Shown: positions 12,001 through 24,000 of the stretch, piece by piece
Layout: each line of letters opens with the position of its first letter
Numbering within the stretch: the stretch's first letter is position 1
DNA from: Candidatus Limnocylindrales bacterium
Lineage (GTDB): Bacteria > Chloroflexota > Limnocylindria > Limnocylindrales > CSP1-4
DNA length: 64,000 bases
NCBI GenBank assembly: GCA_035693145.1
Contig: DASSHA010000158.1
Span: 7,280-71,279 of the forward strand
Reading direction: 5' to 3'
Program-made: the position numbers

Positions 12001-15000
12001 GACCCAGTCGCGGAGGCTGTGGACGAGCGTCCAATCGGCCAGACGGAGCGACAGCTCGGATCTCCAGAGTGCGTCGTACGCGCTCCCGAACGGCGAGTTC
12101 GCCCAGACGAGCGCCGCGACGGTCGCGGCGAGGAGGACGATGGCGCCGCCGGCCTCCGTCGACAGGAACTCCCGGAACGCGCCCAGCTGGCCCGTCGGCG
12201 GATCGGGGGCGCGGGCCTCGGAGGCCATGTTCAGGAGGCGGCCGGGACGATCGGCTCGTTCGGCGGCTGCACGCTCATCGACGCGTCGACGGGACGCCTG
12301 CCGGCGAACCGGACGAGGACGCTCGAGAGCGCGATCGAGATCACGATCGAGCCGAGCAGCGCCTCGTAGAGGTCACGACCGATGGCCCCGGCGGCGAGGC
12401 CGATCGAGGCGAGGACGAAGGTGAACTCCCCGACCTGCCCCGTGCCGATCGCGAGCTGGAGGGGCCGAGCGGGCAGGCGGGCCAGCCGCGCCAGGACCCA
12501 CACGAGGAGGACCTTCGCGACGAGGACGAGGGCCAGGAGGACGGCCAGCCAGCCGGCGGCACCGACGAGCTCGACGGGGTCGAGGAGCGTGCCGATGGCG
12601 ACGAAGAAGAGGACCGCGAGCAGGTCGCGGAACGGGAGCAGCCGCAGGCGGGCCTCGGTCGTCTCGGCGCCTTCGCCGATCGCGAGCCCGGCGACGAACG
12701 CGGACAGCGCCAGCGGAAGCCCGAACGCAACCGACCCGATGCCGGCGACGCCGAGCCCCGTCGCGACCGACACGATGAGGAACAGGTCGGGCTCGCCGTC
12801 GAGCGCGCGCAGCGCCACCGGCAGGACGCGCGCCAGCGCGAGGGCGAGCAGGCCGAAGACGATGAAACCCGCCGCGATGACGAGCGGCGAGCGGTCCGGC
12901 GGCTGGATGGCAGTGAGGACGGCCTCGGCGACGATGACGCCCGTGACGTCCTGGAGGACACTCCAGCCGAGCATCGCTCGCTCTGTGGATCGATCCGTCG
13001 TCCGGCGCCGGCTTCGGGTGATGTTGACGATGACGACGCTCGACGAGAGCGCGATCGCCAACCCGACGAGCGTCGCCGGGCCAGGGGTCAGGCCGAGGGC
13101 GATGGCGACCGCGGCGACGCTGGCCGTGGTGATGACGACCTGCGCGGGTGCGACGACGAACAGGCCCCGCTGCTCGCGCCCGAGGCGGACGAGGTCGATC
13201 TCGATCCCGACCTCGAACAGCAGGAGGACGATCCCGACGTCGGCGAGCAGCTGAATCTGTTCGCGGTCGGCGACGTAGCCGGGCGTGAACGGCGAGACGA
13301 CGAGCCCGACGGCGAGATAGCCGAGCGTCGCGGGCAGGCCGAGGCGGCGCGCGACCCAACCGGCGGCGGCCGCCGCGACGAGGATCACGCCGAGCTCGAG
13401 GACGGCGGGGGCGGTGTGCTCCATCGGGCCGATGGTACGTGGCGCCTACCGCAGCCCGACCCCGCCGGGCATACTCCGAGCGGGCGTGCGCCCGGTGCTG
13501 GCGCAGCCCGTCCTCGAGGGGACCGATGGGGTTCGTCAGCCAGTCCGGGGTTTCATCGCCGGCTCACCGTTCCTGATGGCCGTTCGATCGCGGCCGAACA
13601 CCGCGTCGTCGTCGTCGGCCGAGCCGCCGGAGCTCGAGAGCGCTCGTAGGCGGATCGCCGAGCTCGAGGCGCTCGAAGCCGAACGCGGCCGAGCCGAGAA
13701 GGTCCAGTCGGCCCTCTACCGGATCGCGGACGCGGCGAGCGCCGCGCACGATCTCCAGGAGTTCTACCGGACGATCCACGGGATCGTCGGTGAGCTGATG
13801 TACGCCGAGAACTTCTACATCGCGCTCTACGACGAGGAGCGCGAGCGCATGAACTACCCCTATTTCGTCGACACGGTCGACCCGGACATTCCCGACCCGA
13901 ACGCCTGGGAGCCCTTCGGCGTGGGACAGGCCATCGGCATCACCGCGTATGCGCTCCGGCTGGCCCGGCCGCTCCTCATGACTCCGGCCGAGTACGAGCG
14001 ACTCATCGCGGCCGGCGAACTGTCGCCGCTCGGCGTCACGACCGAGGCCAGCATCTGGCTGGGTGTTCCGCTCAAGGCCGACGGCCGGATGCTCGGCTTG
14101 CTCGTCGTCCAGAGCTACACGAGCGAGCACCAGTACGGGCTGCCCGAGGTCGACCTGCTTTCGTTCGTCGGCCAGCACGTCGCCTCGGCCCTGACCCGGG
14201 CCCGGGCGATCGAGGAGACCCGGCAGCGAAACGCCGAGCTTGCCCTGGTCAACGAGATCGGTTCGGCTCTGGCGAAACAGCTCGATTTCGACGCGATCGT
14301 CACGCTCGTCGGCGACCGCGTCCGTCAGATCCTTGACGCGTCGACGCTTTCGATCGCGATCCTGGACCGGACGACGAACCGGATCAGCTTTCCGTACTCC
14401 GTCGAGGACGGTGTCCACGACGAAGCCTCGGCGTCGCCGCTCGAGCTCGGCGACGGCCTCACCTCGAAGGTGATTCTGGAGAATCGAGCGTTGCGACTCG
14501 GCTCCGCGAGCGAGGCAGACGCGCTCGGCGCCCACTGGATCGGCGCACGCAGCGAATCGTTCCTTGCGGTTCCCATTCCCGCCGGCGACGGCGTCCTCGG
14601 CGCGATCGCGGTTGCCGCGTACGGCTCGAGTGCCTACAGCGAGTCCGACGAGCGGCTCCTCTCGACGCTCGCTTCGAGCATGGGCGTAGCGCTCGAGAAC
14701 GCCCGGCTGTTCGGTGAGACGACGCATCTGCTCGGTCAGACCGAGCAGCGGAACGGGGAGCTGGCGCTCGTCAACGAGATCGGCCTCGCCCTCGCGAAGC
14801 AGCTGGAGTTCGGCTCGATCATCGACCTGATCGGCGAGCGGATCCGTTCGATCTTCGGCGTCCAGACGGGAGGCATCGCGCTCCTGACGGCGGATGGCAC
14901 GTCGATCAGCACGCCGTACAACATCGATCAGGGCGAGCGAATGCCGTCACCGACCCGTGCCCTGGGCCCCGGGCTGATCTCGCGCGTCCTCACCACCCGG

Positions 15001-21000: not shown

Positions 21001-24000
21001 GATCGTGCGGGGCGAGCGCGGCGAATCCGTCGACCTCGTCCTCCTCGACGTCGTCATGCCCGAGCTCGACGGCTACGAGACGCTCGCCGCGATCAAGGCG
21101 GACGAGGCGCGCCGGCACTTGCCGGTCATCATGATCTCCGGCGTCGACGAGCTCGACAGCGTCGTCCGCTGCATCGAGATGGGCGCGACCGACTACCTGC
21201 CGAAGCCGATCAACGCCGCGATCCTTCGGGCGCGCGTGAACGCGTCGCTTGCCGACAAGCGCGTCCACGATCTCGAGAAGGAGTACCTCGAGCGGCAGGC
21301 GGCGCTGACCGAGACGATCGAGCGCCAGCGGCGCGAGCTCAGCCGGTTCCTCTCGCCGCAGGTGGCCGCCCTCGTGTCGACGGCGGAGGGTGAGCAGCTC
21401 CTCGCCGGCCATCGGCGCCAGATCACGGTCGTCTTCTGCGACCTGCGCGGGTTCACCGCGTTCGCCGAGCAGGCCGAGCCTGAGGAGCTTCTGGGGGTGC
21501 TGCGCGACTACCACCGGATGATGGGCGAGCAGGTCATGGCCAACGGCGGGACGCTCGAGCACTTCGCCGGCGACGGGATGATGATCTTCTTCAATGACCC
21601 CGTGCCGCAGGAGGACCACGTCGAACGCGCCGTCCGGATGGCGGTCACGATGCGGGAGCGATTCGCCGACCTCGGCCGTGGCTGGCGCAAGCGCGGCTAC
21701 GACCTGAACTTCGGCGTCGGCCTCGCTGTCGGCTATGCGACGCTCGGGCGGATCGGGTTCGAGGGCCGCTACGACTACGGCGCGATCGGCAACGCCGTCA
21801 TCCTCGCCTCTCGCCTGAGCAGCGAGGCTCGCGCGGACCAGATCCTCCTGTCGCAGCGCGCGTTCGCCGTGGTCGAGGAACTCGTCGAGGCCTCCTCGGT
21901 CGGCGAGCTGACGCTCAAGGGCTTCAGCCGGCCGGTGCCGGCGATGAACGTCGAGCGGCTCCGCAACTCGGCCGACGCCGTTGCCGACTTCGCGCCCGAG
22001 GCTGTCACCGGCTGATCCTTCCGGGTCCGCCCAGGGCCGCCGCGCAGGCGCGTCCCACCCGCGACGGCCGAGTCGCGCACGACCAGTCACACCGGTATGC
22101 GCGGGAGGCCCGTAGGAGGCCGGCACCGAGCAACTACGGCGACGAATGCGTTCGGGCCGCGTCGAGTCTCTCGGCGATCGACACCTGGTCCTTTCCGCGT
22201 GCCAGATCCGCGGCCGTCCGGCCGTCGTCCGTACGCGCCCCGGCGTCCGCGCCGCCCTCGAGCAGCAGCGAGACGAGCGCGTCGTCGCCGTTGTCGGCCG
22301 CGGCGTGCAGTGGGACGAAGCCGCCCGCCTGCCGGGCATTCGGATCGGCCCCTGCGTCGAGGAGGAGCCGGGCAACCGCGACGTTCCCGGCTGCCGCGGC
22401 GCTGTGCAGCGGCGCGACCGCCGACGCGTTGTCCGCAACGGCGGTCGCGTCGGCGCCGTGCTCGAGCAGGACGCGCGCCGTGGCCTCGTCGGCAAAGAAC
22501 GCCGCGAAGTGCAGCGCCGTGAATCCGTCCACCGAGCGGGCTCCGACGTCGACGCCGGACCTCAGCACGGCCACGACTCGATCGGCTCGGCCCGCGATCG
22601 CGGCCTCGTGCAGGTCCAGGGGCGGATCGGCGGCGAGGATCGCCTCGGCGACGTCGCGATGACCGTGGTACCGCGCCAGCATGAGCGCCGACAGGCCGGC
22701 CTCGTCGCGTGCGCCCGCCAGGCCGCGGTCAGACTTCAGCATGGCGGCCGTCGCGGCTCGATCCCCGCCGCGAACGGCGTCGAGGAACGCGGCCACGGAG
22801 GCCATCGGCCGTTCCGCCATCCCGTTATCCACGACCGGTAGGATCACCCATCGGCGCGACGTGCGTCCGCTGGAGGACCTGCAGGATCGATGGCCATCGC
22901 ACTCGGGATCGATGTCGGCGGCAGCGCGATCAAGGCCGCCGCGGTGGATACGGGGACCGGCCGACTCGTCAGCGCCTCGACGAAGGTCGACACGCCCGAG
23001 CCATCGACGCCCGCCGCGGTCATCGACGAGATCGTCCGCCTCGCGGCCGCAGTCGGCGCCGAGGCGGGCGCTCCGGACGCGCCGGTCGGTGTGGACGTGC
23101 CGTCGGTGGTCATCGACGGCGTGGTCAGGACGGCCGCCAACATCGACCGCGGCTGGGTCGACTTCGCGGCGCGCGACCGCCTCGAGGAGCGGCTGGGGCG
23201 CGCAGTCGTCCTCGTCAACGACGCCGACGCCGCGGGCGTCGCGGAGATGCGCTTCGGGGCCGGCCGCGGCCGAAGCGGCACGGTCATCGTGCTCACGCTC
23301 GGGACCGGTGTCGGGTCGGCGATCTTCGTCGGCGGGCGGCTCGTCCCGAACACCGAGCTCGGGCACATGGAGATCCGCGGCACGGACGCCGAGCATCGCT
23401 CGGCGGCGATCGCCCGGATCCGCGACCGCCGATCGTGGGAGGAATGGGCGGCCGACCTCGACGAGCACCTCCATGCGATCCACCGCCTCTTCTGGCCGAG
23501 CGTGTTCATCCTCGGCGGCGGCGTCAGCGCCGAAGCCGACCGGTTCATCCCTCGGCTCACCGTCCCGTGCGACGTCGTCCCGGCGGCCATGCGCAACGAC
23601 GCCGGCGCCATCGGGGCGGCGATGAGCGCCGTCACGCCCGTTCCCGAGGAGGCGAGTCAATGACCGGGCAGCCCGTGGAGCACGTCGTCGTCGAGGCGAC
23701 GCCCGACGAGATCTGGGCGATCCTCCAGGACCCGACCGCGCTGGCGCGCGTCCTGCCCGATGCGGAGTCGGTCGTCCCCGACGGCCCGGGCCGGGTGCGG
23801 GCCGTCCTCGCCTCGAAGATCGGCTTCTTCACCGTCCGAGCGGACGTCGTCGCGCGCTTCGTCGACCCCCAGCCCCCGCATCATGTCCGACTCGAGCTCG
23901 ACGGCGCGGCGCGTGGGATGTCCGGCGACCTGCACGCCTCGATCCCGTTCGACCTCGTCGCCCTCCCGAGCGTGTCGGGTGTCGCCCGAACCGACGTTCG

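Follow-up and report, generated by a model that had tools for sequence, protein, structure and literature searches.

A probable cytoplasmic His-Asp-His-Asp relay with a variable GAF array and an atypical class III cyclase domain in Limnocylindria

Multistep phosphorelays, in which a hybrid histidine kinase, a separate histidine phosphotransfer (Hpt) protein and a response regulator cooperate, are represented by Sln1-Ypd1-Ssk1, LuxQ/LuxU/LuxO and DhkC-RdeA-RegA. The Dictyostelium relay controls the level of a cyclic nucleotide via the receiver-enzyme fusion RegA, which is a phosphodiesterase. A pathway that leads from GAF input via a histidine kinase and a receiver to a class III cyclase is known from cyanobacterial CyaC (Spirulina/Anabaena), whose cyclase is switched on when the receiver next to it is phosphorylated (PMC3009899). 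Here, a window of 64,000 nucleotides (nt) from a Candidatus Limnocylindrales bacterium (contig DASSHA010000158.1, positions 7,280 to 71,279, assembly GCA_035693145.1) was analyzed, which carries on its plus strand three adjoining genes, hereafter the triad, for a soluble hybrid histidine kinase with ten GAF modules, a stand-alone Hpt protein and a response regulator that ends in a class III cyclase domain. The Limnocylindria are abundant Chloroflexota of soils and lakes, hardly any of which have been cultured. Our analysis indicates that the triad is probably a complete cytoplasmic His-Asp-His-Asp relay, present lineage-wide in Limnocylindria, with a GAF array on a helical spine and a cyclase output. 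Each of its components belongs to a known family, and the combination of hybrid kinase, Hpt protein and regulator is that of the classic multistep relay; what sets the triad apart is its expandable GAF array and its cyclase with a His/Gly/Ile pocket. Neither a relay ending in a class III cyclase nor a kinase with a variable multi-GAF array turned up in literature searches, which agrees with an earlier reading of the sequence alone (the sequence-only reading), in which the layout had not been recognized as a characterized system.

Comparison with the described systems underlines both the likeness and the distance. The triad shares with the classical relays the hybrid kinase, the separate Hpt protein and the regulator, but its output is a cyclase fold rather than a transcription factor or a phosphodiesterase, and its kinase is soluble and carries two receivers. 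CyaC, the catalytic domain of which (1WC0-1WC6) is structurally similar to the triad cyclase at a template modeling (TM) score of about 0.83, is a single polypeptide of the order receiver-GAF-GAF-kinase-receiver-class IIIb cyclase, with two GAF domains, direct His-to-Asp transfer without Hpt and a canonical Lys/Thr/Asn site, whereas the triad is divided over three genes and has an additional Asp-to-His-to-Asp step, from 5 to at least 15 GAF modules and a His/Gly/Ile pocket. The fungal group III hybrid kinases (Nik1/Os-1/TcsC) are cytosolic, carry a tandem HAMP array and feed an Hpt protein (PMC4965123). A repeat array as sensor and transmission element is thus common to them and to the triad kinase; however, their repeats are HAMP units of about 50 residues as compared to GAF modules of about 175 residues, the systems are eukaryotic with a mitogen-activated protein kinase output, and the sensor regions share no homology. 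Finally, the combination of a receiver, a helical linker and a dimerizing domain of nucleotidyl-cyclase fold, as found in the triad regulator, is known from PleD, WspR and DgcR, the output of which is a GGDEF domain making cyclic di-GMP and not a class III homology domain. In line with this, the receiver of the triad regulator matches PleD with an E-value of 1e-28, and the fold search with the whole regulator model returned WspR and DgcR.

The kinase gene (13576-20511) encodes a protein of 2311 amino acids, counted from the ATG at 13576 to the TGA at 20509-20511, with ten GAF modules followed by HisKA, HATPase_c and two receivers (REC1 and REC2). The ATG at 13576 is a plausible start, GTG 13414 being the alternative. 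The Hpt gene (20508-20879, 123 amino acids) overlaps the kinase stop codon with its start, its ATG at 20508-20510 forming with the kinase TGA the sequence gcATGAcc (ATGA at 20508-20511), and the regulator gene (20876-22015, 379 amino acids: receiver, linker helix and class III cyclase domain) overlaps the Hpt gene in the same manner, the GTG at 20876-20878 overlapping the TGA at 20877-20879 in cGTGAcc (GTGA at 20876-20879). Both overlaps had been described in the sequence-only reading and were found again in the sequence; likewise, the soluble reading frame of about 2300 residues with ten GAF modules, H-box, ATPase domain and two receivers proposed there was borne out by Pfam, translation and hydropathy, and the Hpt and receiver-cyclase assignments by Pfam hidden Markov model (HMM) matches above the cut-offs. 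A membrane segment is lacking in the kinase, as the highest mean Kyte-Doolittle value over 19 residues is 1.74 and the segment in question is a GAF beta-strand containing Gly, Pro and Asp, not a membrane helix, and the N-terminus, described as a coiled coil in the sequence-only reading, is a charged helical stretch which runs into the first GAF module. No named NCBIfam equivalog fits; similarity to BarA, TorS, ArcB and PleD stays below threshold. From the overlapping reading frames, the triad is probably a three-gene operon whose products are co-translated.

All four phospho-sites of a His-Asp-His-Asp relay are intact and conserved. In the kinase core (18910-19611), HisKA (18910-19107, kinase residues 1779-1844, E 1.1e-21) and HATPase_c (19246-19611, residues 1891-2012, E 1.5e-24) both score above the Pfam gathering threshold, the H-box ([12 protein letters not shown], with the core SHEIRTPLN) is present in the translation with the phospho-accepting His 1789 at 18940-18942, and the HExxT motif associated with the phosphatase state is present as well. 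Pfam finds two Response_reg matches in the kinase: REC1 at 19690-20004 (assigned from translation and comparison of orthologues) carries Asp 2088 at 19837-19839, and REC2 at 20110-20445 (Pfam residues 2179-2290) carries Asp 2227 at 20254-20256, and in both the acidic pocket (DD/ED), the phospho-accepting Asp, the S/T and the K can be read in the translation. The H-box is kept in orthologous kinases, 62 of 69 of which contain the DxxMP motif twice; it is retained in REC1 and, as DVQMP, nearly invariant in REC2. The Hpt protein matches PF01627 with 47.9 bits against a cut-off of 24.6 (E 1.6e-12) and has the motif AHTLKSAS with the phospho-accepting His 63 at 20694-20696; PAH[TS]LKS is kept in almost all of the 78 species loci (defined below) having an Hpt match. 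In the regulator, the receiver (residues 7-121, 20894-21238; Response_reg E 3e-27) carries Asp 58 at 21047-21049, and D11, D12, D58, S88 and K110 are invariant in an alignment of 21 sequences. Median identity among orthologues amounts to 79% for REC2, 70% for the kinase core, 62% for REC1 and 50% for Hpt, so that REC2 is the best-conserved part of the kinase and Hpt the least conserved component.

The gene set recurs across the lineage. The receiver-cyclase is 100% identical to a protein from a metagenome-assembled genome (MAG) of a 'Candidatus Limnocylindrales bacterium', and metagenomes from soil and freshwater contain more than 100 homologues at 75-95% identity. When each species was represented by one genome, at least 573 stretches were found to encode a relative of the cyclase, the best 80 of which are treated here as species loci; all of these 80 come from MAGs of Limnocylindria-type Chloroflexota. 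Wherever upstream DNA suffices among the 80 loci, the genes for kinase core, Hpt and receiver-cyclase are without exception neighbors on one strand. Eleven loci that form a sub-clade (L057-L059, L066, L069, L072, L074-L076, L079 and L080) have the order kinase-cyclase-Hpt with the same domains. The 4-nt overlap of Hpt stop and cyclase start is present in 56 of 65 loci, and an overlap of 4-14 nt between kinase stop and Hpt start in most. The proposal of the sequence-only reading that the three genes form one unit is therefore upheld by their co-conservation, their synteny and their overlapping stop and start codons across species. Moreover, since the flanking genes are not conserved while the triad is syntenic, it can be regarded as an autonomous, class-wide unit. 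The orthologous kinase reading frame is split into short pieces in the long-read MAGs L055, L056, L060, L062 and L068, which likely reflects assembly indels in a repetitive, GC-rich gene rather than true pseudogenes.

The output domain combines a conserved class III scaffold with replaced specificity residues. The cyclase domain (regulator residues 181-349, 21416-21922) matches Guanylate_cyc (PF00211) with E 4e-19 and 69.3 bits against a cut-off of 21.9, and is separated from the receiver by a long helix, which in the AlphaFold2 (AF2) model of the regulator (mean predicted local distance difference test, pLDDT, 78.5) spans the 43 residues 114-156 (21215-21343). The catalytic domain of Pseudomonas aeruginosa CyaB (3R5G) is the closest structure and the best match in both sequence and fold (E 4e-36, 37% identity; Foldseek TM 0.89, root-mean-square deviation 1.6 Å). 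CyaB itself is anchored in the membrane via a MASE2 domain and is not regulated by a receiver. A gap-free alignment to CyaB allowed the active-site positions (21440-21919) to be assigned: the two metal-binding Asp are kept as Asp189 (in FCDLRGFT) and Asp233 (in GDG), the transition-state Arg as Arg313 and the phosphate-binding Lys as Lys348, whereas the Lys/Thr/Asn of CyaB is replaced by His/Gly/Ile, with His229 in place of the substrate-specifying Lys, Gly302 in place of the substrate-specifying Thr/Asp and Ile309 in place of the transition-state Asn. Hence the Lys and Asp/Thr pair of adenylyl cyclases is absent; of the guanylyl-type pair of Glu and Cys/Gly/Ser, the first position holds His and the second a compatible Gly; and of the transition-state pair of Asn and Arg, only Arg is present. 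The Asn that the window protein has three residues before Ile309 was considered as a relocated catalytic residue and rejected, as other species hold N, M, T, Q, A, H, S or P there. Both the kept and the replaced residues are stable. Asp189 and Asp233 are invariant in the 21-sequence alignment and kept in the species loci, among which the catalytic domain is 62-82% identical; H229, G302 and I309 are invariant in the same alignment and present in about 118 of 120 close homologues, His occupies the Lys position in 80/80 species loci, and Ile is found in nearly all readable ones.

This pocket belongs to a larger group of proteins. A survey of 1.84 billion cluster representatives recovered 1922 relatives at E < 1e-30, and in the nearest 150 (representatives at 50% identity) the Lys position holds Arg (73), His (58), Gln (10) or Lys (1), so that 149 of them are without the canonical Lys; the second specificity position holds Gly (62), Ala (53), Thr (18) or Ser (13), and the Asn position Asn (133) or Ile (14), the latter every time together with His. 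These counts imply that a pocket of His/Arg and a small residue characterizes a large subfamily, and that the change of Asn to Ile is clade-specific. Loss of the Asn need not abolish activity, because active class III cyclases are known with Ala (Ma1120; PMC4215837) or His (Rv1900c; PMC4886424) in its place, and because the guanylate cyclase XC_0250 of Xanthomonas campestris, which has Ala at a specificity site, Leu for Asn and Ala for Arg, makes cyclic GMP (cGMP) and no cyclic AMP (cAMP; PMC3770947). Set beside the triad by its description, XC_0250 resembles it in having a small residue (Ala) at a specificity position and a hydrophobic one (Leu) for Asn, with a spacing of 7 positions that equals that of Gly302 to Ile309, but it also lacks the Arg that the triad cyclase has kept. 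Since the metal and phosphate ligands are retained, the domain most likely still cyclizes a nucleoside triphosphate; given its conserved but non-canonical base pocket (His/Gly) and the hydrophobic Ile in place of Asn, the product may be cGMP or another cyclic nucleoside monophosphate (cNMP) rather than cAMP. The cyclic-nucleotide output put forward in the sequence-only reading is uncertain: the fold and the metal and phosphate ligands are of class III type, but three canonical catalytic or specificity residues are replaced, Lys by His, Asp/Thr by Gly and Asn by Ile. Paralogues whose His-type catalytic domain is 60-72% identical are fused to one to four GAF domains or to REC-GAF; in metagenomes these are REC-GAF-cyclase (P0024, P0121), GAF x4-cyclase (P0122, P0133) and GAF x2-cyclase (P0123, P0125, P0127, P0130) proteins, the GAF domains of which are 25-36% identical to the kinase modules. 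The existence of these fusions indicates that GAF input and His-type cyclase belong together independently of the operon.

The GAF array of the kinase, which Pfam recognizes as ten stretches of GAF_2 (E 2e-146), was divided by module alignment into five types: G1, A, B, G9 and G10. G1 (13666-14211, type '1') is a divergent N-terminal module with a conserved insert ([10 protein letters not shown]); it is 18-27% identical to the other modules, and type '1' is the first module in most orthologues. G2 to G4 (14212-14712, 14713-15231 and 15232-15750) are type A repeats with pairwise identities of 55-60% and a DNA repeat period of 519 nt, reaching up to 90% DNA identity at the C-terminal helix and linker, and G5 to G8 (15751-16278, 16279-16806, 16807-17334 and 17335-17859) are type B repeats, pairwise 48-64% identical with a period of 528 nt. 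Taken together, these direct DNA repeats of 519-528 nt show identity peaks of 83-90% over the last helix and linker of each module. The kinase-proximal modules are G9 (17860-18357), about 40% identical to type A, and G10 (18358-18864), 19-26% identical to the other modules. When an HMM built from the ten modules of the window was run on orthologous kinase reading frames, broken ones being excluded, arrays of 5, 6, 7, 8, 9, 10, 11, 12, 13 or at least 15 modules were counted, and even the locus of the closest species (L004) holds 11 modules as compared to 10 in the window. Once their modules are assigned to the types of the window, the orthologues fit a single scheme, 1-A(n)-B(m)-9-X, where n ranges from 1 to 6 and m from 1 to 7; the end '9-X' is constant in most of them, and a few show just one of the two. 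Between species, positional orthology is limited to the end modules; an internal module from another species usually has its best match in G4 or G6/G7 regardless of position, and a search for positional orthology among internal modules found it only in the closest species. As counts differ and orthology by position is limited to the ends, the internal modules appear to have been repeatedly duplicated, lost or homogenized.

Among 134 A and 166 B modules, columns conserved at 90% or more lie mostly in the two terminal helices, the C-terminal one of which ends in ALENARLF, and in the last beta-hairpin, and it is the central region, the site of the ligand pocket in other GAF domains, that varies; conservation is thus strongest in the inter-module helices of about 50 residues and not in the pocket region. 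The consensus sequences of types A and B contain no invariant His or Cys, and in the module alignments the complete NKFDE signature is absent from all types, with remnants only, as type A keeps F..DE without N-K and type B keeps N, F and D without K and E. In an AF2 model of G6-G7 (mean pLDDT 79.6), two GAF folds are joined by one continuous helix of 52 residues, and the best fold matches of this model are the tandem GAF domains of Anabaena CyaB2, PDE2A, PDE5 and PDE6 as well as phytochromes; the sequence similarity to solved GAF domains is weak, with E-values of 7e-11 to 1e-8 for partial domains of DosT/DevS and about 1e-5 for PDE5. Two candidate functions of the modules were rejected: feedback by cNMP, as the NKFDE motif is incomplete and the likeness to cNMP-binding GAF domains is one of fold only, and sensing of haem or a bilin, as a conserved His/Cys is absent and the similarity to DosT/DevS weak. 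We therefore see the array as GAF beads, varying in number, that are threaded on a helical spine.

From these observations a mechanism can be proposed. The soluble kinase is predicted to form a parallel dimer, whose sensor would be a rod of GAF modules on long continuous helices with fixed ends, G1 at the tip and G9 and G10 beside the kinase, between which A and B units would have been gained, lost or homogenized in the course of evolution. Such an array may serve as a modular helical-spine element of transmission and gain. Sensing would fall to a few types of module, or to the whole array, rather than to ten independent ligand channels, and the array would determine how far the DHp/CA core autophosphorylates His1789 or is in its phosphatase state. 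The phosphoryl group would pass from His1789 to a kinase receiver, most probably to Asp2227 of REC2, with REC1 acting as a modulator or sink, and from REC2 via His63 of the Hpt protein to Asp58 of the regulator. We infer this sequential transfer among the three proteins from their conserved gene linkage. Phosphorylation of the regulator would then act through the 43-residue linker helix to favor a productive head-to-tail cyclase dimer and thereby synthesis of a cyclic nucleotide, a step that is suggested by analogy with REC-GGDEF regulators and cyanobacterial CyaC.

The surroundings of the triad were inspected as well. The window has a GC content of about 72%, uniform along its length. Flanking the triad are two Na+/H+ antiporter genes in divergent and an ankyrin-repeat gene in convergent orientation, together with a CoxG gene and a gene for a GDE-like hydrolase. 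On the minus strand upstream lie genes for an NhaA-type Na+/H+ antiporter with a fused DsbA/thioredoxin domain (10297-12228) and for a Na_H_Exchanger family protein (12231-13424), the latter divergent from the kinase gene and separated from it by the intergenic region 13425-13575, which by its position is the presumed promoter region of the triad. The ankyrin-repeat gene (22134-23660, minus strand) lies just downstream of the cyclase gene, and a homologue in the same position in 14 of the 80 loci (among them L006, L057-L059, L066, L069, L071, L072, L074-L076 and L078) is the sole recurrent neighbor. The neighbors were rejected as a clue to function, as the antiporters, CoxG and the GDE-like gene are not kept beside the triad in relatives. 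Two further genes of the window encode cyclase domains: a 1363-residue protein with zinc ribbon, class III cyclase and AAA_16 (STAND) ATPase (31354-35445, plus strand), and a 1416-residue protein in which a cyclase domain precedes an NB-ARC/AAA STAND NTPase (38331-42581, minus strand), the third cyclase-domain gene, less than 20 kilobases from the triad. Because the cyclase at 31354-35445 keeps the canonical Lys, along with Asn, Arg and Lys, cyclases of canonical and of His type coexist in the genome, and the His-type pocket of the triad can be seen as a distinct specialization and not as the outcome of genome-wide drift. No evident link to the triad was seen for a GT87 glycosyltransferase (665-3124, minus strand), the glycogen-debranching-like (GDE_N_bis/GDE_C) hydrolase (24207-26534, plus strand) or a PmbA/TldD-type metallopeptidase pair (55102-58778, plus strand).

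Several points weigh against the proposed relay with a helical-spine array and cyclase output. A scan of 13200-13800 found no sigma-70 consensus upstream, with a scanner that does not cover the phylum and in a genome of 72% GC, and a scan of 21900-22300 found no terminator downstream, although such a scan is uninformative at 72% GC in an uncovered phylum; co-transcription is thus argued from the gene overlaps. Both kinase receivers are intact, and it is by its higher conservation that REC2 is preferred for the relay. The AF2 models, which show monomers, reach moderate confidence with a predicted TM score of 0.51. The low conservation of the GAF pockets is compatible with ligand binding, as diversified pockets could mean diversified ligands, and with three canonical catalytic or specificity residues replaced, the cyclase domain could be weak or inactive.

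The sequence-only reading had assumed that many small-molecule or redox inputs are integrated through ten GAF pockets, and in its strict form, in which each module binds its own small molecule or redox cofactor and about ten inputs drive the synthesis of cAMP, we hold this to be highly doubtful. The ten modules are bona fide GAF folds, their relatives bind cNMP, haem and other ligands, with weak similarity of the present modules to DosT/DevS and PDE5, and the pocket-forming central parts are the most variable ones, as would be expected with differing ligands. However, orthologues of otherwise identical architecture have from 5 to at least 15 modules, the internal ones are recent or homogenized paralogues of two types without positional orthology, the type consensus sequences lack an invariant His/Cys and a complete NKFDE signature, and the cyclase lacks the adenine-specifying Lys-Asp/Thr pair. 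Ten different ligand pockets are therefore unsupported, because module number varies, the internal modules are paralogous A/B repeats and conservation resides in the helices.

A relay whose cyclase domain is a pseudo-enzyme, so that nucleotide binding, protein-protein interaction or dimerization-dependent sequestration would be controlled instead of a second messenger, also seems decidedly unlikely. It would be in accordance with the loss of Lys and Asp/Thr from the substrate-specifying positions and of Asn from the transition-state pair, and with the finding of Yan et al. (1997), in the form in which it is cited in PMC4215837, that Asn and Arg are essential for catalysis in mammalian cyclases. 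Contrarily, active class III enzymes without Asn exist, and across species loci with catalytic-domain identities of 62-82%, both metal-binding Asp are kept along with the Arg and the Lys that binds phosphate. The replacement residues, too, are fixed, as is typical where a pocket is constrained, and the combination of fixed His/Gly/Ile with retained metal Asp, Arg and Lys argues for selection on a working pocket; furthermore, a pocket without Lys is shared by nearly all of the nearest 150 representatives, most of which have the Asn, presumably a functional subfamily. Somewhat less remote, but still unlikely, is a branched relay, in which Hpt and receiver-cyclase share phosphate with other kinases of the genome and REC1 is the true relay site or a competing sink, which would make the operon a node instead of a private channel. 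Two intact kinase receivers, the low conservation of Hpt, the occurrence of the same cyclase subtype behind other input architectures and the presence of further cyclases in the same window would fit such branching, whereas the strict co-location of the triad with its overlapping junctions in every locus with enough sequence is the usual signature of dedicated partners. Beyond the relay as such, we suggest tentatively, as a possibility we regard as doubtful, that the array is an evolvable GAF rod in which repeat number tunes threshold or gain, and that the nucleotide produced by the His/Gly/Ile cyclase is not cAMP, candidates being cGMP, a pyrimidine cNMP and a mixture.

The conservation of the operon across hundreds of Limnocylindria species suggests that it likely controls something central to their physiology. 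The same core and end modules combined with 5 to at least 15 interchangeable GAF modules constitute a natural experiment on signaling through a helical spine, comparable to the fungal poly-HAMP kinases. No characterized member of the cyclase subfamily was found in literature searches, and its study may reveal a new rule of nucleotide selection. If the cyclase is active, the triad would exemplify, in a bacterium, a class III cyclase as the end point of a His-Asp-His-Asp relay. If the evolvable rod and the product other than cAMP should both prove true, it would represent a new mode of substrate selection among class III enzymes, and this abundant, uncultured lineage of soil and freshwater would possess a second-messenger pathway that is new as well.

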